NCBI GenBank assembly: GCA_020629475.1
Contig: JAHDDF010000002.1
Coordinates: 2,536 to 40,846, forward strand
DNA length: 38,311 bases
Origin: Saprospiraceae bacterium
GTDB lineage: Bacteria; Bacteroidota; Bacteroidia; Chitinophagales; Saprospiraceae
Direction of reading: 5' to 3'
Part shown: piece after piece, positions 722 through 32,267 of the stretch
Layout of the letters: each line of letters starts with the position of its first letter
Numbering within the stretch: the stretch's first letter is position 1
Translations under genes and position numbers: made by a program
The notes under the pieces: model-generated
Told to the model about the DNA's origin: nothing
The model's database searches: none
What the model saw: only the letters and a program-made list of their open reading frames with translations

Positions 722-3700
722 TTATATCCCAACCTCCAAGAAAATCAAAAACCCGTCTTCCTGACGGATATCCAACTTCGCATTAATCTCCCCCGCCCTC
801 ATTTTAATATTCGATAAGCCTTGTCCTGCGGATTTGGATTTGCCTTGGGATGTGGTTCCGTTGTCATGGATGGAAAAGGTGAATTTTCCTTTCTCTTTTT
901 TGAGCAAGACTTTTACTTCATCCGCATTGGAGTGCTTAACGATATTGGTAATCGCCTCCTTGAAAATGAGATATAAATGTTGCCGCAGTTCCGTCGCCAT
1001 TTTTTCATGGGGTTTTATTCCCGTTTGAACGACGTGGTGCTTTATACCCTTCGGTTCCAAATTTTCGAACGCGAATTCATTCATCCGATCCATTAATGCA
1101 TCCCAATTATCCCTTCTGGCATCCATCGTCCAAACGGCATCCCGCATTCTTGACATGGCGGAACGACTAAGTTGACTAAGCCTTGAAACTTTCTTTTTAT
1201 TTTTTTCGTCAATGGTATATTCCAGAATTTCGGATTGCATGGCTAATCCCGTTAGAATGGAACCTACGTCATCATGTAAATCGCTGGAAATTTTAGTTCT
1301 TAATTTTTCAATGGCAAGGCGTTTTTCTAATTTTTGCTTGAAATAAAAATACAATAAGGAATAAATAATCAGCCCTAAACTTAGCGTGCACAAACCCCAA
1401 AACCACCATGTCCTAAACCATGCTTGATGAACAATAATGGGAACGGATAATACTTCGTTATCCCAATTATCGCCTTTTATGCTGCCTTTTACTTTAAATA
1501 CATATTTACCCGGTGGCAAGCTTGTAAATTTCACATAATTTTCTTTTTGTGCCGAAGACCATCTTGTATCGTAACCTTCTAGTTTATATTTATAAAATCG
1601 ACTATCCAAAGAGTTATAATTCAACAAAGCAAAATTAAACTGAAGCATTTTGTCATTATATGCCAATTCTATTTTATCAATATTCTTCGGGAGAAAACCA
1701 ATATTAAATAAAGAGTCCGTTTTTCCTTTTAATATGGTATAACTTGATAATTCCAATGAAACTTTTGCATTTTGTTCTTCTTGTAATTTATGTTTTACCA
1801 GTAAAGAATCAGGATGAAACAAAAAGAACCCATTGTGGGTACAAACTCCTATCTCTCCACTCGACAACACCCTCATACCCCTTGCCCCTACTCCCGCACC
1901 TTCCTCCTGCGAAAAGAAAATGTGCTTTTCGGTATTGAAGTTATAATAATGCATTCCTTTGTTACCTTCCACCCATGTGACACTATCCCCATAAAAGACG
2001 GCGCCCATAATTAAATTTGAATTAAAAATTGAATTATCAATATATTTTTCAATTGACTTTGAACGTGTATTAAATAGTGCAACTTGATCGGAATCGTAAA
2101 TCCATATATAATCTTTTTGGGATTTTTTTACGTTTAAACTCCAGTCCGTCCTCCAGGTTATTTTCTTACTCCCAAAAAAAGTTGTTTCTTTTTTGTATGA
2201 CGTTAAACCTTCTTGGTTGTCTAGAAAAAAAATGCCGCTTGTCGTCGGCAGCCACAAATTTCCATATTCTTCTTCAACCATATTATTCACACGGGTATTA
2301 TCAAAATTTAATAAACCTTTTGGATCTTGATAATTCCCTTGAAACTCCAAGGTTCCTTGATCTAGTTTTGCAAATAACCTTGTATTAAGCCCTTCCTTTC
2401 TTCCTGACACCCAAACATCCCGGTCTTTTGTTTTGAGGATATGATCGATTAGTTTTAGCGGTGCTTTTTTTCTTTTTACTTCGTAATTTTCATCAAACGT
2501 GTAATAAGCGTCCCATGTACAATAAATCCTTGTATCCCCTTCTATAAATATATTTGTTTTTCCTTTTCCGTTCAGGGGGAGCGGAAGTGCTTTTATTGAC
2601 CTATCCTTGGGATTAAAATCGTAAGTGAACCTACCATCTTGGACAATAATTCTCCCGTCCTCTTCTTCAGTGATGCTGTACGGCGTCGCATTTTGATAAA
2701 CATTATCACCACGTAAATCATATACCTCCTCAAAAATACGGGAAGGAATATGCTCATAAATATCATGCTCCTCATTTTGGGTATCTACGAGATAATTATC
2801 AAAATGACTTTCCTTGTCCCTTATTTTAAAAACGCCACCTCTTTTTATGCCCCAAATATTTCCGTCCTTATCTTCTTTAATCAATTTGATGTCTCCCGCT
2901 CCGCCTTCCAAAACCTTGACCAGTGGTTTTCTAAAATTAACAATAGAACCGTCCTTAGGCTTGAATAAAAACAAATTGGAACTCTCTCCTCCCAAAAAAA
3001 TTCGATTCTTTTGGTCTATATGAATATGGAATATTCGGATTGGTGAATTTTTATTGTCCGAGCAAGGAGTCATATGGGTCAACTTTCCTGAAATGGGATG
3101 CCGCTCGAACTTTTCCGATAAGGAATTATATACTTCAAAAATACTTTTATCCATTCGCCAGAGATGCCCTTTGTTATCAATTCTGAAAACTTTGCATTCT
3201 TTAGTAGCAATGAATTCCTCTCGATCCTTTATAGGCAAAAGAACCTCACTTCCTTGACCATCCAAAATGACCAAATCACTATTTGTCCATAAAAAATAAA
3301 ATAAGCCGTCTTTGTCTTTTACATTATAATCCCAATCCACCTCCTGATCATTAATAATCGGAAATAAATCAAATGCCACGTTGAATTTTAGCGTGGTTTT
3401 ATCAAGCTTATATACCGGACGTGAATTAGCTATTGAATTGGAAGTAAACAACCATACGTCCTTTTTTTCATCCTCATATAAACAATCAATTCGATAATCC
3501 TCCGGCAAGCTAAAAACGTATTTCTTTTTCTTTGAATGCGGATGGAATAAACCTACTTTATCCCTTGCGGTAAACAAAATACTATCTCCTACAAAAACGA
3601 TATCGCCACGCAATTGAACATCGTCCCGTTCCTCTATCTCTTTTAGTTGCGTTAACGTAAAACCACCTCCGTCATATTTTAGGTAATCTTCATCATTATG

Positions 3701-3823
3701 CATCCAAACATAGTTGGAAGCATCTACTTCCAACCGGGTAATATATCCCTTATACGGGTATTCTATATCAAACGCGGATACCTGCGCGGAGGCGATGCTA
3801 CCCAAGCATGAGAGAAGTATCAA
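722..3823 (-). CDS. Sensor histidine kinase: large periplasmic beta-propeller/Y_Y_Y sensor, one TM helix, HisKA_3 (NarX/DesK-type) H-box, HATPase_c
   Basis: 1033-aa ORF. The Y_Y_Y-type motif YKYKLEGYDTRWSS...LPPGKYVFKVKG lies immediately before the TM helix WFWGLCTLSLGLIIYSLLYFYF. The H-box is ISSDLHDDVGSILTGL (HisKA_3). The N-box is IFKEAITNIVKHSNA, and the G-boxes are HDNG and GQGLSNIKMRA. The start is uncertain: the track starts at a TTG (3823), which leaves a signal peptide with no charged n-region. The in-frame stretch back to the stop at 3853..3851 has no ATG or GTG but contains a CTG at 3844, which would give (M)TRHLFILILLSCLGSIASAQ. Confidence 0.88.
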   Translation of the reverse strand: MILLSCLGSIASAQVSAFDIEYPYKGYITRLEVDASNYVWMHNDEDYLKYDGGGFTLTQLKEIEERDDVQLRGDIVFVGDSILFTARDKVGLFHPHSKKKKYVFSLPEDYRIDCLYEDEKKDVWLFTSNSIANSRPVYKLDKTTLKFNVAFDLFPIINDQEVDWDYNVKDKDGLFYFLWTNSDLVILDGQGSEVLLPIKDREEFIATKECKVFRIDNKGHLWRMDKSIFEVYNSLSEKFERHPISGKLTHMTPCSDNKNSPIRIFHIHIDQKNRIFLGGESSNLFLFKPKDGSIVNFRKPLVKVLEGGAGDIKLIKEDKDGNIWGIKRGGVFKIRDKESHFDNYLVDTQNEEHDIYEHIPSRIFEEVYDLRGDNVYQNATPYSITEEEDGRIIVQDGRFTYDFNPKDRSIKALPLPLNGKGKTNIFIEGDTRIYCTWDAYYTFDENYEVKRKKAPLKLIDHILKTKDRDVWVSGRKEGLNTRLFAKLDQGTLEFQGNYQDPKGLLNFDNTRVNNMVEEEYGNLWLPTTSGIFFLDNQEGLTSYKKETTFFGSKKITWRTDWSLNVKKSQKDYIWIYDSDQVALFNTRSKSIEKYIDNSIFNSNLIMGAVFYGDSVTWVEGNKGMHYYNFNTEKHIFFSQEEGAGVGARGMRVLSSGEIGVCTHNGFFLFHPDSLLVKHKLQEEQNAKVSLELSSYTILKGKTDSLFNIGFLPKNIDKIELAYNDKMLQFNFALLNYNSLDSRFYKYKLEGYDTRWSSAQKENYVKFTSLPPGKYVFKVKGSIKGDNWDNEVLSVPIIVHQAWFRTWWFWGLCTLSLGLIIYSLLYFYFKQKLEKRLAIEKLRTKISSDLHDDVGSILTGLAMQSEILEYTIDEKNKKKVSRLSQLSRSAMSRMRDAVWTMDARRDNWDALMDRMNEFAFENLEPKGIKHHVVQTGIKPHEKMATELRQHLYLIFKEAITNIVKHSNADEVKVLLKKEKGKFTFSIHDNGTTSQGKSKSAGQGLSNIKMRAGEINAKLDIRQEDGFLIFLEVGI

Positions 3824-3955
3824 TATGAAGAGGTGTCTCGTCAGTTTCGATTAAATTTTAAACACATTTCAAAAAGAAAACGAAGAAGTTAACCCACTAT
3901 TTTCCAAGATATAGGCAAAGGTTCGGTTCTTCAAAAATTCTTGACCTTAGGGGAC

Positions 3956-3989
3956 AAAAAAAGCACCTTGCCATTCCCGGCAAAGTGCT
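3956..3989 (-). terminator. Rho-independent terminator after the kinase-kinase-receiver operon
   Basis: The reverse-strand RNA reads AGCACUUUGCC-GGGAAU-GGCAAGGUGCU followed by seven U. The stem is 11 bp with one G-U pair. It lies 28 nt downstream of the receiver gene stop at 4017. Confidence 0.7.
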
Positions 3990-4016
3990 TTCTCTTCTAC
4001 GTTTCAAATTATTCGA

Positions 4017-4460
4017 TTAATCCAGCTCCTCCTTATTCGGGAACTTAACGATGGTAAACCAATAATCCTGTAACTTTTGGATAACCTCACCGAACTGCTT
4101 GAAATCGACGGGTTTCCGGATATAGCTACTGGCTTGTAGTTGGTAACTTTTTAGAATATCCTCATCGGCGGTGGAGGTGGTAAGGATGATAACGGGAATG
4201 CTTTTTAGGTCTTCATCCTCCTTTATCCTTTTCAGCACTTCCTGCCCGCTCAGCTTCGGCATATTCAAATCCAACAGGATAAGATCAGGTGTGGGGGCGT
4301 CAACATGCTTTCCTCTTTTAAAAAGAAATTCCAAAGCCTGCTCCCCATCCCGTGCTACGTGGAGTTGATTCATGATCTTTCCACGCTTAAATGCTTTTTT
4401 GGTAAGAAGGATATCCCCTTCATTATCCTCTACAAGTAATATCTCTACCGGTAAGCCCAT
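4017..4460 (-). CDS. Single-domain response regulator (CheY/Rcp1-like receiver, no output domain)
   Basis: 147 aa. The sequence begins EILLVEDNEGD (acidic pocket), has LILLDLNMPKLSG (phospho-acceptor Asp), ILTTS and YIRKP (conserved Lys), and ends after the receiver fold. Confidence 0.92.
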   Translation of the reverse strand: MGLPVEILLVEDNEGDILLTKKAFKRGKIMNQLHVARDGEQALEFLFKRGKHVDAPTPDLILLDLNMPKLSGQEVLKRIKEDEDLKSIPVIILTTSTADEDILKSYQLQASSYIRKPVDFKQFGEVIQKLQDYWFTIVKFPNKEELD

Positions 4461-4495
4461 TGTTTTTGTTTCAATTTTATATAAAAGTAATCGAA

Positions 4496-5851
4496 TTACT
4501 TTAAGCCCTTAAAAACGGAAAAGAAAAAAGTGGTTCCTTTCCCTTCTTCGGAATCCAACCAAACTTCTCCTTTATGATAATACACCAGTTTTTGAACGAT
4601 AGCCAAACCTATTCCCGTACCTGAATATTCCTCCTTACGGTGCAGTCGTTTGAATATTTCAAAAATCTGGTTTTTATATTCCATATTTATGCCAATCCCG
4701 TTATCCTTTACGGAAAAAACATGATATTCCCCTTCATCCTTATATCCTATTTCAATGGTAGGTATTTCGGATTGATTATATTTCAACCCGTTCGTAATAA
4801 GGTTGTTGAAAATAATGGAAAGGTAATTTTCGTAGCAAAGGATCGTTGGCATTTTATTATAAATAATCTGCCCCTTTTTCTGTTTTAGAACGAGGTTTAA
4901 ATCCTCTTTTTTCTTATCTAAAACAGCCGCTACATTGCATTCCTCCAAGGGTAAATTCTTACGCCCCGCCCTGGAATAATTTAATAAATCATCAATTAGG
5001 TTCGACATTCGGTTTACGCCGTCCACCGCAAAATTAATATATGTTTTCGCATCCTCATCTAACTCTTCTTGATATTCGGATTCAAGGAGTTGTACAAAAT
5101 TCCCCACCATTCGTAATGGCTCTTGTAAATCATGTGAAGCGATGTAGGCGAATTGTTCCAAATCCTTATTGGAACGCTGTAAACTTTCATTACTTACTTT
5201 AAGGGATTGTGTCCTTTTAGCAACCTCCTCTTCCAACTTCTCTTTCTGTTGCTCAAGTAATTTCCGATTTTCATTTATTTTTTTTGAATAACGGCTTTTC
5301 TCCGTTTCATAAATCCAAAGAATCAGAAGTAATGAGGTTACGAGAAAAAAAATACTACTGAAATAAAAATCCGCATTAGAAATATTCGATTGTTCGAAAT
5401 AGGTAACAACGGCATTTTTCTCTAAGTAATAGAAGTAACCAATTACACCTAAATAAAATACGGAAGAAATAAGCCCTATTCGTTTACCGCCAATTAAAAA
5501 GGCTAAAAAAGGGGCAATAATCATCCACAATAAGTCATCGGAAAAAATCCCACCGGAATTATGCGTCACGGGAATTAGCATAACAAAACAAAGGGTAACG
5601 AGACCGGTTGCCACCCACTCAAGAGAGCGTGTATATTTATATAAAAAAAGAAGCCCGATACAAGGAAGGATAATAAGCGGATACGATATCCCGTTATCGA
5701 ATTCACTTAGAAAAAAGTGTGTGACGAACCATAGAAATATGGCGATAAGGGTTACAATGAAAATAAGGGAAAATACGATCCTACCTTTCTTTTCATCCTC
5801 CGGGGCATCAGGGATTTCAGGAACAAAATATGAAACGACTTTATTTATCAT
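4496..5851 (-). CDS. Membrane sensor histidine kinase (multi-TM N-terminus, coiled coil, HisKA, HATPase_c)
   Basis: 451 aa. About 6 hydrophobic helices occupy the first 180 aa. The H-box is ASHDLQEPLRMV, the N-box is NNLITNGLKYN, G1 is VKDNGIGI and G2 is GTGIGLAIV. It lies 35 nt upstream of the receiver gene on the same strand. Confidence 0.9.
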   Translation of the reverse strand: MINKVVSYFVPEIPDAPEDEKKGRIVFSLIFIVTLIAIFLWFVTHFFLSEFDNGISYPLIILPCIGLLFLYKYTRSLEWVATGLVTLCFVMLIPVTHNSGGIFSDDLLWMIIAPFLAFLIGGKRIGLISSVFYLGVIGYFYYLEKNAVVTYFEQSNISNADFYFSSIFFLVTSLLLILWIYETEKSRYSKKINENRKLLEQQKEKLEEEVAKRTQSLKVSNESLQRSNKDLEQFAYIASHDLQEPLRMVGNFVQLLESEYQEELDEDAKTYINFAVDGVNRMSNLIDDLLNYSRAGRKNLPLEECNVAAVLDKKKEDLNLVLKQKKGQIIYNKMPTILCYENYLSIIFNNLITNGLKYNQSEIPTIEIGYKDEGEYHVFSVKDNGIGINMEYKNQIFEIFKRLHRKEEYSGTGIGLAIVQKLVYYHKGEVWLDSEEGKGTTFFFSVFKGLK

Positions 5852-5870
5852 TTTTCACCGTATCTGTTTT

Positions 5871-6905
5871 TCACTGAGGAATCATTACCTCAAAAATACT
5901 ACCGGCGCCTAACTCGGATTCCACAAGGTTTATTCTTCCCCCTTGTTTTCTTGCCGCTAATTGGACTTTAGCCAAGCCAATGCCGGACCCGGTCAGATTG
6001 GGACGGGAGTCCACCCGCTCCATGATTTCAAAAATGATTTGGTGATTTTTCTCTTCGATACCTTTTCCGTTATCCTTGAATCTAAAAAATTGACATCCAT
6101 CTTCAATGGAACAAGCAATATCGATAATCGGGGTACGTCCGGTGCTTGCGGCTATCGCATTTTTTATAAGCTCCTTGCAAATGACACCGAATAACTGCCT
6201 ATCAACAAATACCTCGATGTCCTCAGGAAATGAAATTTCCGCTTTTGTTTCTTGTATTAAAGCTTGCAGCTTGTGAATTTGCAGATGCAGTACATCCTCG
6301 AACCTCATTTCCTTTTTCTCTACTCGCTTCCTTGCTACCTTATTATAAAGGGAAAGGTTATTCAACAAGAGGTTCATCTTCTTTGAACCGTCTTGGATAA
6401 AATAGAGGTATTGTTTTCCTTCCTCATCCAATTGATCCTCATACTCTTCGCCCAACAACATGGAAAAATTAAGGATCGAACGCAATGGCTCCCCTAGGTC
6501 ATGGGTTATGATGTACGAGAATTTCTTCCCGGACTCCAACAAATCCTCATAATCCTGCTTGAGTTTTTCGACTTGGTTTAAGGAACGTTCAAAATCCACG
6601 GAAACGGCAAAATGCTTGGGATGCCCTTCACGGATATCCACCGGGATAAAATCCATTATGGCATTATTCCCTAGGAAATCCCCTTCGCAAGATGAGCGGG
6701 CTCCTTCCAAGCATTTAGAAAGGCAATCGGTGGAACTCGTATCCTTCCGCAGCAAATCCCAGATGTTTGGTTCACCGTCTAACAGGCGGAGTTCTTCTTC
6801 GGATTCCAGCTGGTTCGTATTTATGCCCGTGGCATACAAATCCTCCCCGAAGCTCAAGACCAAACTGCCTTGAAGCCGGTTTTTCGTTTCGATTTTAGTT
6901 TTCAC
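5871..6905 (-). CDS. Soluble (no TM) histidine kinase with a ~110-aa N-terminal PAS-like sensor
   Basis: 344 aa with a GTG start. The H-box is ITHDLGEPLRSI, the N-box is LIKNAIAAS, G1 is FKDNGKGI and G2 is GSGIGLA. No hydrophobic helices are present. Its stop is 19 nt before the next kinase start, so co-transcription is likely. Confidence 0.85.
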   Translation of the reverse strand: MKTKIETKNRLQGSLVLSFGEDLYATGINTNQLESEEELRLLDGEPNIWDLLRKDTSSTDCLSKCLEGARSSCEGDFLGNNAIMDFIPVDIREGHPKHFAVSVDFERSLNQVEKLKQDYEDLLESGKKFSYIITHDLGEPLRSILNFSMLLGEEYEDQLDEEGKQYLYFIQDGSKKMNLLLNNLSLYNKVARKRVEKKEMRFEDVLHLQIHKLQALIQETKAEISFPEDIEVFVDRQLFGVICKELIKNAIAASTGRTPIIDIACSIEDGCQFFRFKDNGKGIEEKNHQIIFEIMERVDSRPNLTGSGIGLAKVQLAARKQGGRINLVESELGAGSIFEVMIPQ

Positions 6906-6943
6906 AATGGTCGATTGATATAAAAATCGTATTGTATTCTGTT

Positions 6944-6951
6944 CAAATTTA
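6944..6951 (-). promoter_or_regulatory. Candidate -7 box (TAnnTTTG) for the 6905->4017 kinase/kinase/receiver operon
   Basis: The reverse strand reads TAAATTTG, an exact match to the consensus, 38 nt upstream of the GTG at 6905. Confidence 0.35.
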
Positions 6952-7128
6952 GAATAAATAAAATTGGGGAGGAAATTTAAAAGGTTAAGGCTGTTGGATT
7001 TAGCATAGGAAAACGCTTCTTATATGCTCTAACCAATATAAAAAACACTTCGTATGATGATTAAATAAAATACGCTTCGCCTTCCTATCTAGGATGTTTC
7101 TATTTTTACCTTTCACCAAATAATTAGA

Positions 7129-26779: not shown

Positions 26780-29587
26780 TTATTTCGTAAAACCGATAGG
26801 TTCAACAATGGTGGTAACTTCAGCGGTGCCCGTACATCCGTTGACATCGGTAACGGTTACGGTGTAAGTTCCCGCATCCGAAACCGAAATTGTTTGGGTA
26901 GCTTCAGTGGTGGACCATTGATAACCGGCATATCCTAAACCGGCATCAAGTATCGAAGGATCTCCCGGACAAATCGTGAGATCTCCCGTAATCACGGGCG
27001 TAGGTAGTGGGTTAACATTATAAATTACGGTTGCTACATCCACGCACCCGGTAGTGGTATTGGTTACTTCCGCGTAGTATGTATCGCCATCTAGGACCGT
27101 AATATTTCCGGGTGTTGTAACGGTAGTAGTTAAAGCGGGATCGGAATACCACATAATGCTTCCGGTTCCTATGCTTGCTTCTAGAGCGGTAAGGCTCTCG
27201 CCCGCAACACTTCCTCCCCCCAATACATCTTCACAAAGGTCAATGGTTTGATCCGTTACGGTGGGCAATGGATTAACGGTAAAGGTAACGGTTGCTAGAG
27301 CGGAACATCCATCAGTAACGACTACATAATAAACCGCCCCGTCTACAACATCTTCGTTTTTATCATCAGTAACGAGTGTTGTTAAACCCATATCCGTGTA
27401 CCACTCAAATGTTGGCGCCGGATTATCCGCATTAATTTGATCGTTATACAAGGTCAAATCTACCGCCGTGGCAACACCGGAACCTGCTATGGTTTCACAA
27501 ACCTCCGGCGTGATATCCGTTACTACAGGAGGAATACAACAATCCAAGGAAGCATTGAAGACTTGCGCGACATCCGCGGTACAACCAATATTTTCCCAAA
27601 CCCCGACTTCCCCGTCGGCATATGTCCGAATGGAAAGACTACAATCCGTATTGCCGGAACAAGCCGGTGCGGCCAGGGCTATTACCTCGAAACAAACCGT
27701 CCAAGTTAGCGGATCTATCGCCGGGTTTGTCGGACAATCCGGGAAGCTAAAATCACCGTAGGATTCATCGGGTGTATTATGATCACTATTATCACAATCA
27801 AAGACTCCATTATTTTCCGCTTCCCATGAATCATAATTAGTAACGAAAAACCAACCTCCATCGGTAATAGGATCACCGGCGGTATATCCTAAACTTGGAT
27901 TATTTAAATTATAATCAACACTATTGGGCGGGTACCAAGACCACGTACCTGCCGGTGAGTCCTCACATGGTTGCGGGGGACCTGAAACAACATTACCCAC
28001 AAAACCTTGAGTAGCCAAAGCTACTGTTACGCTGAGAGGTTGCCCATTGGCATCAAAAGATGCGGGATCCCAACAATCCCCGAAGGTGGGTACAATACCG
28101 GAAAGGTAATTACAATTCGCGTCCGGCTCTTCGCCATAACCATTGATGGTATAGCAAAACTCTACGGTTTCCCCTGGTGAATAAGGGCCTCCCATTGGAG
28201 TAAGGGCATCCGATGAACTATTTTCTACTAGAGTTGCATTGGTATTACAAGCGGAATTATCCTCTTGTATTTCGATACAAAGGTTGAAGGTTCCTACATC
28301 GCCATTATTCGAGGAGACACCGATAATGTAAGTATCGCCGGAACCTACCGTTATCCCGTTTAGGGCATTTAGGTTTCCTCCATTACCCGTATTACAATCT
28401 ATAAGGGTATAATTCGCGCAATCCGTAGTTTGATAAATCGCTACTTGTGGTTCGGTAATATCCGAGCTCGTCATTCCTACGTTCATGATTGCCCCTGAAG
28501 CATCAACGGTAACCTCGTACCAAACCGTCGGGTTTGCTAAATCAAAACAACCTTGGGATGGCGAAAAAACGGGTCCTTGAGTAGCACCATCATTACAGCC
28601 GGTAACGCAAACATCCCCTACACCGGTAGTAACGGAAACCGTTTGAGCATTACTACAATCATCATTTGAACCAAGGACACAAGCTCCGGTACCTGCATCA
28701 TGTACGCAAATATCAAACGTCCAATCCGTGGGATCGGTTACTCCGGTGGCACCATATTCAAATACTCTAATTAAGTAGGTATTCCCAATGGTTAAGCCAG
28801 TAGCATTTATTACTTCAAGACCACCGCCTACGGTCCCGTCCACGCAATCATAAATGGTAAAGGAACTACAATCCGAGGATTCCAACAGTTCCACTACGGC
28901 ATCATAACCGGTGCCACCGGTTACTTCGATAACCGGATTGGTTGTGGTAGCCGTAAATTCAAACCAAACATCATCGTCGGGTCCTAATCCACAAGACTCC
29001 GCAAGGAGAAAATCCGTTCCGAATTCGGAAGAAAAATTGGAAGTAGAACAAGTGGTAGTTTGAGTAAGTGTAATGGCATCGGGGCAATCATCGTTTGGCG
29101 GCGGCGTCACCAAAGGGTTGGTTACACAAACGGTATAACTTGCCTCAACGTCATTATTGGACAAGACGGCGAATATATAGTTGGTTCCGGAAGTCAGTAA
29201 AGCCGTTTCATTCATGCTAATACTCCCGTAATTCCCGTTTTGATCCGCAACAGCTAAACAAACGGGCGTGGTAGCACAAGTAGATGCCTCAAATATTACA
29301 ATCTCAGGGCGTGAACTTGCAGGGCCTGTAACATCAATTGTTACATTGGGTCCTTGTGCCGTAAATTCAAAAAAGTAGTCAATCGCACCTTCTACACCAC
29401 AAGGCGAGAAATCCCATTCCGAGGTGGCTCCTGTATTATCAAATGCCGTACAGCCACCTGAAAGGTTAGTGATTATTGTAGCATCAGCACAATTGTCATT
29501 TCCGGGTTGGGCGAATGCCACCCCGTGAAAAAGCCCGACAAACACTAATAATGCAATGCTAAATCTTAAAAATGATGCTGCGCTCAT
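26780..29587 (-). CDS. Large secreted Cys-rich multi-domain protein: three N-D-x-C-x-x-A-type jelly-roll-like repeats, a unique Cys-rich middle domain and three Ig-like repeats; no T9SS C-terminal domain
   Basis: 935 aa with the signal peptide MSAASFLRFSIALLVFVGLFHGVAFAQ. Three ~140-aa repeats begin NDNCADATII, NDDCPDAITL and NDDCSNAQTV. Three C-terminal ~75-aa units have the pattern W(Y/S)..........(Y)Y.(V)V(T/..)...GC....(V)...V.P.P, as in adhesin Ig-like repeats of gliding Bacteroidota. The protein is acidic and Thr/Gly/Cys-rich. Confidence 0.85.
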   Translation of the reverse strand: MSAASFLRFSIALLVFVGLFHGVAFAQPGNDNCADATIITNLSGGCTAFDNTGATSEWDFSPCGVEGAIDYFFEFTAQGPNVTIDVTGPASSRPEIVIFEASTCATTPVCLAVADQNGNYGSISMNETALLTSGTNYIFAVLSNNDVEASYTVCVTNPLVTPPPNDDCPDAITLTQTTTCSTSNFSSEFGTDFLLAESCGLGPDDDVWFEFTATTTNPVIEVTGGTGYDAVVELLESSDCSSFTIYDCVDGTVGGGLEVINATGLTIGNTYLIRVFEYGATGVTDPTDWTFDICVHDAGTGACVLGSNDDCSNAQTVSVTTGVGDVCVTGCNDGATQGPVFSPSQGCFDLANPTVWYEVTVDASGAIMNVGMTSSDITEPQVAIYQTTDCANYTLIDCNTGNGGNLNALNGITVGSGDTYIIGVSSNNGDVGTFNLCIEIQEDNSACNTNATLVENSSSDALTPMGGPYSPGETVEFCYTINGYGEEPDANCNYLSGIVPTFGDCWDPASFDANGQPLSVTVALATQGFVGNVVSGPPQPCEDSPAGTWSWYPPNSVDYNLNNPSLGYTAGDPITDGGWFFVTNYDSWEAENNGVFDCDNSDHNTPDESYGDFSFPDCPTNPAIDPLTWTVCFEVIALAAPACSGNTDCSLSIRTYADGEVGVWENIGCTADVAQVFNASLDCCIPPVVTDITPEVCETIAGSGVATAVDLTLYNDQINADNPAPTFEWYTDMGLTTLVTDDKNEDVVDGAVYYVVVTDGCSALATVTFTVNPLPTVTDQTIDLCEDVLGGGSVAGESLTALEASIGTGSIMWYSDPALTTTVTTPGNITVLDGDTYYAEVTNTTTGCVDVATVIYNVNPLPTPVITGDLTICPGDPSILDAGLGYAGYQWSTTEATQTISVSDAGTYTVTVTDVNGCTGTAEVTTIVEPIGFTK

Positions 29588-29812: not shown

Positions 29813-30928
29813 CTAGCTTGTTTCCCTGGTTCCTTGCCTTGCTAAAAAATAACCGATTACGGCATAAATCGCAAAACCGAACAAAGTGATCCCCGCCGTT
29901 CCTAGGGTCATATCCTTTCCGGTAATTAACTGACCGGCATTCACCACGTCCGCTACAGGAAGTGCGGCTGCCCAAAAGCCTGATGGCCCTCCGCCTACAC
30001 CGGCGATAATGACCAAGGCAGCGATAAATAGGGTCCAAACAAAATAACAAATCCCGAAGGCGCCCCAAGGCTTTTCCGTCCTCGTTGCCGCCAAGGCTAA
30101 AACACCCGCCCAAAAAGTATGGGACAACAAAAGAATCCAAACCATATGAAACACCTGCCCACTGAATAAATAATTATCAAACAATGCCTTAAGCATAACA
30201 GGATGCTCAGGGTAAAATGACAAGGACGCCTTAAACCCAAGTACCGCTATCATGGCGGAAATTAAACCCATAACCGAAGCGCCTATCCAACGATCCCAAG
30301 CCGGATACGCCCAAAATCCTACCCTGTCCCTTACTGCGGAATAAATGATTACGCTAGGGAAAATAAGCCCGGAAAAACCAAAAACAATCAAGAAAACGGA
30401 GAGGTAATTCCTGATGGCACGGTCAATGGTTTTAAAATAATCCGAGGTATCATCAATCTCGATCCGAACGGGGTTTAAAATTTGGGCAGACAAGGAAAGG
30501 CTATCCAAACGCTTGTCTATGATCCCTTGTTCAAAATCATAAATGATGTCATTTAAACGCTTGGGACCGGACGCTCCCTTTGCTACTATGGTCAAAACGC
30601 CTGTCTCTCCCCTGTTGGTCGTGCCGGAAAAACCCGTCGGAATGATTAATGCATAATCAAGTTTCCCTTTTCTTACCGCCTCCTTCATTTCAGATTCGGA
30701 AAGATTTTTTTCTACAATAAAATCGCTTCTTTTTTCCAAGGTTTCGACGAAGGACGTATTGCCATCATTATCAATCAGACCTAGATTAATATCACCTAAG
30801 GGTCTTTCCAAATAATCGGAAATACCTTTTCCTATTCCACTTAAAAAGAGGAATGCTACCAAAAAGGGCGTTAGGATATTGAATAACCAAATGCGTTTGA
30901 ACTTGAAAAGGCCTCGGAGAGTTCTCAT
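29813..30928 (-). CDS. ABC-2-type transporter permease (NatB/YhaP-like topology); no ATPase gene adjacent
   Basis: 371 aa. An N-terminal TM helix (IWLFNILTPFLVAFLFLSGIG) is followed by a ~150-aa extracytoplasmic loop and then 5 C-terminal TM helices, the ABC-2 membrane-protein layout. It starts 31 nt after the stop of the upstream SUKH-pentapeptide gene on the same strand. Confidence 0.75.
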   Translation of the reverse strand: MRTLRGLFKFKRIWLFNILTPFLVAFLFLSGIGKGISDYLERPLGDINLGLIDNDGNTSFVETLEKRSDFIVEKNLSESEMKEAVRKGKLDYALIIPTGFSGTTNRGETGVLTIVAKGASGPKRLNDIIYDFEQGIIDKRLDSLSLSAQILNPVRIEIDDTSDYFKTIDRAIRNYLSVFLIVFGFSGLIFPSVIIYSAVRDRVGFWAYPAWDRWIGASVMGLISAMIAVLGFKASLSFYPEHPVMLKALFDNYLFSGQVFHMVWILLLSHTFWAGVLALAATRTEKPWGAFGICYFVWTLFIAALVIIAGVGGGPSGFWAAALPVADVVNAGQLITGKDMTLGTAGITLFGFAIYAVIGYFLARQGTRETS

Positions 30929-30959
30929 GGATTGGTTCTGAATTTTGGGTGAAGATACG

Positions 30960-32267
30960 CTACCCGTGCTTCACGTCCTTCAAAATAGCGCCCGGAAATT
31001 TACTTCCTTCAAGGAGCGCGCCCGTAAAATCAGCACCGGTTAAATCACAATTCTCGAAATCGGCATCCCGCAAATCCGCATTCACGAAGTTGGCACCTTG
31101 TAGGTTCGCGCGGGAAAAATCACAGGCATTCAAACGGGCTTCCGCAAATAGGGTCCCCGCCAGCATTGAATCCGTAAACAAACTACGGCTCAAATCCGCA
31201 CCGGAAAAATCAACACCTTTGGCAAAACAGCCGCAAAAATTACTAAAAGGTAGTGCGGTGTCGGACAAATCCAAGGAAGCAGGAATATGTTTCCTATCAA
31301 ATACGGCTTGCTCCCCTTCCTCGAATTTCACCCCGGAGTATATCCCGATAACCAAACCTGAAACCTGCACGGTTTGCCATTTTCCGCCGGCTCCACCGGA
31401 AGCCAAAAACTTATGGTGCTCTTCCGTTATTTTTTGGAATTGCGATTTGGTTATCGGTTTTGAGGTTTCCGCCATTTGCTGCATCATAGCGGTTTGAAGA
31501 CCTGCCGTGCTGCTTCCGGGTTTATCCGACAAAGGAAAAATTTCCTTCAATCTAAAAACCGATAAATCCAAAACACGCTCCTTGGAAAAATAGCTTTGGG
31601 GTGTTTCAATCGGCGGTTTATCATGACCGCCAAATTCATGGTAAAAACCATTCCTTCTACTGACCACCCCCTTGTTCGCTAATACGAATTCCATATAGGA
31701 AGCAAAGTCCGTTCGTTTGGAATCCGTGTAGCAAGCTTGGTGATCGTCACCTAGGATTACGGGTGGATTACCCGTTCCGTTCAAGAAGAAAGCCATATCG
31801 TAATACTTACTAAAGCAATCGAACGGCTTAATTTTTTTCGCGAAAGAGAGCAAACCGTAAGTTTCACCGGAAAAGGCTTGTTCCTCCTCATCCGTCATAA
31901 AATCAAAATAAACCTGCTCTTCCCAATCCTTGGAAAAAGCCAAAGGCAGGGGAAGAATCATGACGGCGCCATCATAGGCATGATAATCGTAGTACATATA
32001 ATCCCAATCCAAGGCATCCTCTTTGGGGGCGTGCCTTTGGGCATCAAATTGTTCGTTATCCTCAAAAATCCACGTAAGCTGAAGCCCGTTGGTTTGACGG
32101 TAAAAGGATTCAATGGAATTATCCATCCTTGCCCCCAAGGCTTGCTCGGCTTGCCCTATATCGGAATCAGTGGCGGGAGAAAAGGTATTGAAACCGGAGA
32201 CCACCACTCCGGGAGTCTCCCTGAGTTCGTCCACCATTGCCTTGAAACGCTCCAAGTAAGTGTCCAT
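30960..32267 (-). CDS. SMI1/KNR4 (SUKH-1)-like domain fused to a C-terminal pentapeptide-repeat domain
   Basis: 435 aa. The N-terminus reads DSDIGQAEQALGARMDNSIESFYRQTNGLQL, the SMI1/KNR4 pattern 'I..aE..LG..lP..y..fl...NG'. The last ~100 aa are consecutive A(D/N)LxX pentads: GADLSRSLFTDSMLAGTLFAEARLNACDFSRANLQGANFVNADLRDADFENCDLTGADFTGALLEGSKF. Confidence 0.8.
   Translation of the reverse strand: MDTYLERFKAMVDELRETPGVVVSGFNTFSPATDSDIGQAEQALGARMDNSIESFYRQTNGLQLTWIFEDNEQFDAQRHAPKEDALDWDYMYYDYHAYDGAVMILPLPLAFSKDWEEQVYFDFMTDEEEQAFSGETYGLLSFAKKIKPFDCFSKYYDMAFFLNGTGNPPVILGDDHQACYTDSKRTDFASYMEFVLANKGVVSRRNGFYHEFGGHDKPPIETPQSYFSKERVLDLSVFRLKEIFPLSDKPGSSTAGLQTAMMQQMAETSKPITKSQFQKITEEHHKFLASGGAGGKWQTVQVSGLVIGIYSGVKFEEGEQAVFDRKHIPASLDLSDTALPFSNFCGCFAKGVDFSGADLSRSLFTDSMLAGTLFAEARLNACDFSRANLQGANFVNADLRDADFENCDLTGADFTGALLEGSKFPGAILKDVKHG

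Follow-up and report, generated by a model that had tools for sequence, protein, structure and literature searches.

An uncharacterized SUKH–pentapeptide fusion and its gene neighbors in a Saprospiraceae genome

Genes at the locus and their conservation

The stretch of DNA analyzed here (38,311 nt, referred to throughout as the window) belongs to contig JAHDDF010000002.1 of a Saprospiraceae bacterium (GCA_020629475.1). It carries a gene in which a SUKH domain is fused to a pentapeptide-repeat domain (30960..32267, minus strand, 435 aa), as supported by its open reading frame (ORF), Pfam matches, ~35 full-length homologs and an AlphaFold model. Also on the minus strand, beyond a gap of 31 nt between the fusion stop and the next start (30929..30959), lies the ORF of an orphan membrane protein of the ABC2_membrane_3 type (29813..30928, minus strand, 371 aa; Pfam and hydropathy), hereafter the permease. 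The opposite side of the fusion gene is flanked by a divergent gene for an exported TlpA/ResA-like thiol-disulfide oxidoreductase (32441..33898, plus strand), hereafter the redoxin. The first-pass annotation of this DNA described the two co-oriented genes and their spacing correctly, and proposed that they comprise a self-protection module of protector and exporter resembling the McbE/McbF/McbG immunity genes of microcin B17. Our comparison with other genomes shows that the fusion and the permease have not been conserved together; the partner that does recur beside the fusion is the redoxin.

To compare loci from the fusion side, we used the annotated neighborhoods of six homologs together with 28 genome loci, representing ~15 distinct genomes, with flanks of up to 8 kb per side where the contig allowed. 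The window permease and its eight closest relatives served as tblastn queries against all loci, and no permease relative was found at any fusion locus. Instead, the genes immediately downstream of other fusions encode a BCCT transporter, a convergent uncharacterized protein, a small secreted protein, a PF11307 (Rv0495c) protein, a hydrolase, and others. The most direct comparison comes from Saprospiraceae metagenome-assembled genome (MAG) 9 (MAG-9; GCA_020630895.1), which possesses relatives of both genes on separate contigs: the fusion is on JAHDII010000014.1 (locus L006) and the permease relative is on JAHDII010000036.1 (L039). There, the permease relative is followed by priA, and a GPx–holB–RicT cluster lies ~4 kb away, comprising the genes that also flank the locus in the window. 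This placement suggests that the permease belongs to the holB/RicT neighborhood, and that its adjacency to the fusion in the window reflects a local rearrangement. The proposed McbEFG-like pairing of protector and exporter therefore fails the test of co-conservation, with no permease relative at the fusion loci of ~15 genomes and the two genes unlinked in MAG-9.

The redoxin is far more regularly associated with the fusion. The protein matches the Pfam families AhpC-TSA, Redoxin and Thioredoxin_8 and the NCBIfam ResA subfamily, and features a signal peptide and a WASWCKPC motif. By tblastn, 11 of the 15 informative genomes, namely the window and 10 others, carry a redoxin gene (33-52% identity) upstream of the fusion in divergent orientation. 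Beyond this pair, the outer flanks are all different in the four annotated cases, window included. Two further fusion loci without a divergent redoxin, L003 and L008, share a second and different recurring neighbor, the PF11307 (Rv0495c) gene; at both loci this gene (L003 7312-7890; L008 9397-9975) comes shortly after the fusion, with a DUF4890-like gene behind it.

The divergent pair also shares its control region. The fusion–redoxin intergenic regions measure 173-352 nt and retain two DNA blocks across eight Saprospiraceae genomes (32268-32440 in the window), while the proteins are just 45-63% identical. Motif 1 of the intergenic alignment, CTA(A/C)GGAAAAGTTAAA(C/T), is found at 32275..32291 (minus strand), 8-24 nt upstream of the fusion ATG; written as CTAAGGAAAAGTTAAAC, it covers 8-25 nt upstream. 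Its core (GGAAAAGTTAAA) occurs once in the 38-kb window, and each of six orthologous genomes has the exact 10-mer as one copy at this same position; L017 features a copy with one mismatch ~37 nt upstream. A single-copy, position-fixed element of this kind is not a generic promoter or ribosome-site signal. Among the fusion loci, the more distant ones without the redoxin are also without motif 1. A hairpin within motif 1 (TTTCC-N5-GGAAA) was considered and rejected, as its stem is broken in L010, L012 and L017. Motif 2 is a block of ~40 nt (…AATTAAAAAATAACACCAAAT…) at 32391..32430 (minus strand) that adjoins the redoxin start in the same alignment and displays partial dyad symmetry in orthologs (TTAACA-N8-TGTTAA in L012). 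These blocks are candidates for an operator or leader element. Rfam returned no match in the window or in the fusion–redoxin intergenic region.

The tempo of evolution at these loci separates the two genes further. Between the window genome and MAG-9 the fusion proteins are 63% identical, compared to 67% for holB, 63% for GPx and 73% for RicT; the fusion thus diverges at a rate resembling that of housekeeping genes. The redoxins of the same two genomes are 52% identical. Judged from these alignments, the fusion resembles a gene passed on vertically and kept under purifying selection, unlike a rapidly diversifying polymorphic immunity gene. The permease diverges much faster, with just 28% identity between the same two genomes against 63-73% for its neighbors.

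Within the window genome itself, the arrangement of the two genes is compatible with a shared transcript. A consensus scan detected no terminator-like hairpin in the 31-nt gap, and co-transcription of the fusion and permease is therefore plausible in this genome, as a lineage-specific feature. The Bacteroidota -7 motif TAnnTTTG has zero occurrences in the gap, in the 3' end of the fusion on the minus strand, and in the divergent intergenic region; it is under-represented in the window, so its absence is uninformative with regard to co-transcription. Orthologs of the fusion and of the permease align from residue 1, which indicates that the long ATG starts used here are correct. The database gene calls are shorter by 10 codons for the fusion (P0001, 425 aa) and by 22 for the permease (P0121, 349 aa), and these public models are probably truncated at the N terminus. 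Protein searches led to a single source contig for both window proteins.

Domain architecture and modular history of the fusion

The N-terminal region of the fusion (residues 1-232; 31572..32267, minus strand) is best described as an enlarged SUKH-1 (SMI1/KNR4-like) domain, as suggested by a Pfam match under the cut-off, by Foldseek and by stand-alone homologs. The Pfam SMI1_KNR4 model (PF09346) matches residues 31-98 of the window protein with 22.6 bits (E 1.8e-4), below the curated cut-off of 25.4, whereas the relatives P0036 (30.7 bits) and P0050 (32.9 bits) clear this cut-off on rescan. Precomputed PF09346 matches are on record for many fusion orthologs, flagged weak where shown, and the family profile weakly matches the SUKH region of FBXO3. 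As the whole-protein model retrieved only pentapeptide proteins in Foldseek, the SUKH domain was modeled separately. The AlphaFold model of residues 1-245 has a predicted local distance difference test (pLDDT) of 93.9 and a predicted template-modeling score (pTM) of 0.91, and its top 21 Foldseek matches in the PDB are all SUKH proteins, with marginal E-values of 2e-3 to 0.35. These include the Knr4 core (E 2e-3), FBXO3, BF1740 (3d5p; probability 1.0, TMt 0.54), YobK (2prv) and 2icg, while Syd (3ffv) ranks below the top 21. Because this top list contains only SUKH proteins, and taken together with the sequence evidence, we accept the prediction of an enlarged SUKH-1 domain of ~232 residues, in agreement with the SMI1/KNR4-type N terminus that the first-pass annotation had recognized.

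With the SUKH-1 proteins YobK, Knr4 and FBXO3, the fusion shares the N-terminal motif LGxxLxxxxxxFYxxTNG and an α/β fold; it differs from them in its sub-threshold Pfam score, the attached β-helix, the lack of a toxin neighbor, and its evolution at a housekeeping rate. In length, its SUKH domain is nearer to Knr4 than to the bacterial immunity proteins (~150 aa). The domain has a net charge of -20, and the protein as a whole is acidic (pI 4.7). The N-terminal sequence shows no evident signal peptide, and the fusion is thus predicted to be cytoplasmic.

The SUKH domain is followed by a conserved linker and helical cap (residues 233-295; 31383..31571, minus strand), apparent in alignments and as helices in the model. 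This region carries the motifs FPxSD…MQQxA and HHxFLxSGGAGGxW, and in the full-length AlphaFold model (pLDDT 93, pTM 0.70) its helices span residues 235-243, 259-268 and 274-289. The remainder of the protein comprises a pentapeptide-repeat β-helix (residues 296-435; 30963..31382, minus strand), identified by Pfam over residues ~332-432 (Pentapeptide, PF00805, E 2e-19; Pentapeptide_4, E 4e-16), by the strand pattern of the model and by PDB matches. There are ~20 canonical repeats in a clean 5-residue register between residues 331 and 433, as the first-pass annotation had counted. The modeled β-helix spans residues 296-433 and stops 2-3 residues past the last coil, with no C-terminal helix.

A right-handed β-helix built from A(D/N)LXX-type repeats is also the hallmark that the fusion shares with Qnr, MfpA, AlbG and McbG. 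It differs from them in its shorter helix of ~7 coils and in the lack, in the model, of the C-terminal helix that mediates dimerization in proteins of this type. Sequence and fold searches with the C-terminal part return generic pentapeptide proteins only. The family profile does match the topoisomerase protectors QnrB1 (E 2e-17), AlbG (2e-13) and MfpA (2e-11), a generic repeat similarity in which designed or synthetic proteins and cyanobacterial repeat proteins outscore all three. Against the NCBIfam pentapeptide models (Qnr, MfpA, HetL, and others), the fusion scores far under every cut-off, with 32.4 bits for Qnr (cut-off 240), 28.8 for QnrB (460) and 21.5 for MfpA (360). These scores place the fusion outside every characterized pentapeptide family, including the Qnr, MfpA and McbG families named in the first-pass annotation. 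Moreover, the net charge of the β-helix is -7 in the window protein and ranges from 0 to -7 among orthologs, so that a conserved DNA-like charge is not evident. The family alignment contains no conserved redox motif.

The ~35 full-length homologs share 33-63% identity. Among species-representative genomes, the full architecture is nearly confined to Saprospiraceae MAGs, with one 'Maribacter' MAG and one Bacteroidota MAG in addition; the family is small and known from MAGs only. Source databases label its members just 'pentapeptide repeat-containing' or 'hypothetical', and no description of a SUKH–pentapeptide fusion was found in the searched literature, consistent with the first-pass annotation, which knew of no characterized example. 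Both superfamilies are known; what is new is an uncharacterized fusion that recurs in both domain orders, not a new system.

The two halves of the protein have distinct distributions. Stand-alone relatives of the SUKH domain (37-49% identity) are represented by P0032, P0034 (Hymenobacter), P0038 and P0041. A protein search with the SUKH domain by itself, which missed the fusions and was used solely to count stand-alone forms, found four stand-alone clusters, and most of the subfamily members encountered are fused to the β-helix module. The C-terminal 195 residues, comprising the FPxSD motif, the HHxFLxSGGAGGxW cap and the repeats, constitute a mobile module that in Myxococcota is also joined to BRCT domains, HEAT/LRV repeats or other N-termini. 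Matches to the module only were found in Chloroflexota and Asgard-archaeal MAGs. The BRCT– and HEAT/LRV–pentapeptide proteins (P0042-P0059; Myxococcota and other phyla) share the entire C-terminal module with the fusion at 38-48% identity, but differ in their N-terminal domains and in a middle region that is not detectably SUKH. A BRCT–SUKH–pentapeptide architecture was accordingly dropped, as hhalign compared the middle region of the BRCT proteins with SUKH at E 0.19 and a probability of 0.3%. The loci of one BRCT–pentapeptide protein, P0047 (L041-L043), contain genes for RtcB, an LRV/HEAT protein, SnoaL, a Ro60/TROVE-vWA protein, WGR and Ank–SUKH, and this neighborhood looks like an RNA/DNA-repair or conflict type.

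Three proteins, P0036, P0037 and P0040 (loci L044-L046), feature the same components in the reverse order, with the β-helix module (residues 7-193) preceding a domain of the same SUKH subfamily (residues 199-389). In hmmsearch with the Saprospiraceae family profiles, the module of these proteins is matched at an independent E-value of 4e-47 and their SUKH domain at one of 2e-20, and Pfam agrees. That the same two subfamilies are joined in either order, in different lineages, is a 'Rosetta-stone' pattern, which predicts that the SUKH domain and the β-helix work together, most likely by acting on the same target. Their neighbors at L044-L046 are, among others, genes for ECF sigma factors, a PNPOx-like gene, and numerous genes with no match in Pfam.

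Possible functions of the fusion

On balance, we lean toward the explanation that the locus holds no two-gene protection module, and that the fusion and permease are unrelated neighbors, the former being a bipartite adaptor or decoy paired with the redoxin. Pentapeptide helices are rigid interaction surfaces and act as DNA mimics in some families, and the β-helix of the fusion could offer a surface of this kind, possibly nucleic-acid-like. The other half of this cytoplasmic, protein-binding molecule would be the SUKH cleft, which may grip a partner protein in the way that SUKH domains of immunity proteins, of Syd (with SecY) and of FBXO3 bind theirs (PMC3113570). The conserved genomic unit of the fusion would then be its divergent pair with the redoxin and their shared, conserved intergenic control region, while the adjacency of the permease would be a local rearrangement of an unrelated gene. 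The BRCT-linked relatives, the RtcB/Ro60/WGR neighborhood and the nuclease-toxin literature provide leads that hint at nucleic-acid-processing targets.

Several observations weigh against this explanation. The redoxin is missing in four fusion-bearing genomes (L005, L015, L016, L021), and vertical synteny within a single family could account for part of the pairing. No physical link is obvious between a fusion in the cytoplasm and a redoxin that is exported, and the binding-adaptor mechanism is inferred from the domain families only. Moreover, the 31-nt gap without a terminator may leave room for a lineage-specific functional link between the fusion and the permease, and the nearest genome available for testing a recent adjacency is only 63% identical to the window.

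The first-pass model draws on these last points. It would have the fusion shield gyrase/topoisomerase IV or neutralize a toxin, while a co-transcribed permease exports the compound with the help of an ATPase encoded elsewhere. The shared strand, the short gap without a terminator-like site, and the presence of both pentapeptide and ABC-2 domains are consistent with such a module, and as in the microcin B17 locus a pentapeptide gene adjoins a gene for an ABC-2-type membrane protein. However, the window lacks an McbF-like ATPase and biosynthetic genes, the adjacency is confined to this genome and absent from every other genome surveyed, and the two relatives are unlinked in MAG-9. No ATPase is found in the window or beside the permease relatives, the scores against Qnr/MfpA-type families are far under their cut-offs, toxin genes are lacking, and no gyrase, mfpB or antibiotic-cluster genes neighbor the fusion. 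The missing co-conservation already largely refutes this model, which we regard as highly improbable. An orphan module resembling McbEFG would have represented a new type of resistance architecture, but the results do not bear this out.

An immunity function of the fusion alone is less remote, but still unlikely. The fusion would here be a fixed chromosomal orphan immunity protein against DNA-targeting toxins that enter the cell, such as nucleases or topoisomerase poisons, its SUKH domain binding the toxin while the β-helix mimics DNA in the substrate groove. Bacterial SUKH proteins are predicted to be immunity proteins against nuclease toxins (PMC3113570), YjbI-like pentapeptide proteins adjoin GH-E HNH toxins (PMC5714182), and a pentapeptide protein has been annotated as an antitoxin of a type VII secretion system (T7SS) (bioRxiv 10.64898/2026.07.13.738213). 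As SUKH and pentapeptide proteins have each been tied to the neutralization of DNA-targeting toxins, the fusion is a reasonable candidate for cooperation between β-helix mimicry and SUKH binding, and the occurrence of both domain orders, which fits two domains on one target, as well as the acidity of the protein agree with this. Yet neither a toxin gene nor an immunity-gene array was found at the annotated fusion loci or beside the stand-alone SUKH homolog, and an immunity role for the fusion alone thus draws no support from gene context. Divergence at a housekeeping rate, a conserved neighbor that is not a toxin, conserved control motifs, a β-helix charge that is not conserved, and a length ~3 times that of typical SUKH immunity proteins argue against it as well.

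It is somewhat less likely again that the fusion works with the redoxin in an envelope or redox-stress pathway, for example as a cytoplasmic regulator or chaperone-like factor for redoxin expression or export. The SUKH-2 protein Syd, which binds SecY, provides an analogy, and the conservation of the divergent pair and its intergenic motifs, the PF11307 (Rv0495c) gene close by at two fusion loci without the redoxin, and the GPx gene nearby in the window are compatible with a role of this type. All of this support comes from gene context; against it stand the different locations of the exported redoxin and the cytoplasmic fusion, the lack of the pair in 4 of the 15 genomes, and the lack of a conserved redox motif in the fusion. 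We give similarly little credence to the broadest proposal, in which the SUKH–β-helix proteins and their permuted forms comprise an unrecognized family in which a SUKH domain that clamps a toxin or enzyme and a DNA-like pentapeptide helix cooperate on one nucleic-acid-processing target; in Saprospiraceae, a dedicated operator would couple the expression of the gene to that of an envelope thiol-redox enzyme. Were this the case, the fusion might, for example, be fixed in the chromosome to inhibit a broad range of incoming nucleases or topoisomerase poisons, or it might regulate a DNA enzyme of the cell itself. For a small family that is known from MAGs and has no phenotype, the practical impact is modest at present.

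The permease and the remainder of the window

The permease matches ABC2_membrane_3 (PF12698) with 44 bits against a cut-off of 31.6, and its hydropathy profile comprises a first transmembrane (TM) segment, TM1, a loop of ~130 aa, and a C-terminal hydrophobic block consistent with five further TM segments (hydrophobic segments at residues 10-37, 171-200, 213-239, 259-282, 287-323 and 340-364). The ABC-2 assignment of the first-pass annotation is thus upheld. A word-indexed search matched the permease to itself alone, while an exhaustive HMMER search yielded relatives and revealed a rare family, with 83 proteins at E<1e-3 among 1.84 billion representatives, the closest of which are 28-34% identical. 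Among the relatives, priA follows in L038 and L039, while L009 has opposite-strand flanking genes; no fusion lies beside the permease relatives next to priA, and the sequence up to 6 kb from the L039 relative contains no ABC ATPase gene, although the genome could encode one elsewhere.

One possibility is that the permease works independently of an ATPase and has an outer loop that evolves fast. It resembles the ATPase-less, ABC-2-like YhgE/Pip proteins in having TM1, a large loop on the outside, TM segments grouped at the C terminus and no partner gene for an ATPase. This likeness is offered as a lead, not as a test of membership; the YhgE/Pip NCBIfam models did not match the permease at E<0.1.

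The first-pass annotation reported no ATPase, toxin or biosynthetic gene nearby, and this was corroborated across the window. None of its 21 ORFs of at least 150 aa encodes an ABC ATPase, and the LSGGQ and Walker-A (GxxGxGK[ST]) motifs have zero occurrences in all six frames. Searches with Pfam, NCBIfam and PADLOC found no toxin, biosynthetic or defense families near the gene pair, and no PADLOC defense model matched the fusion, the permease, the redoxin, or the type IX secretion system (T9SS)-associated protein encoded beside them. The latter, a protein of 935 aa (26780-29587, minus strand), is encoded on the same strand as the permease and 225 nt downstream of it; its N terminus bears a hydrophobic leader, and two galactose-binding-like domains of the T9SS-associated kind were identified in it. 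NCBIfam gave no match for this protein, and none of the homologous loci examined contains a relative.

Overall, the window is a segment of a Bacteroidota chromosome with SprA, RuvA, the T9SS-associated galactose-binding domain (GBD) protein, RicT, holB and GPx. It further encodes an AddA-like helicase-nuclease and a histidine kinase block. This block (722-13936) is dense, comprising five sensor histidine kinases, a LytTR response regulator and a ricin-type lectin protein, and its G+C content of 0.35-0.42 is below that of the rest of the window (~0.46).

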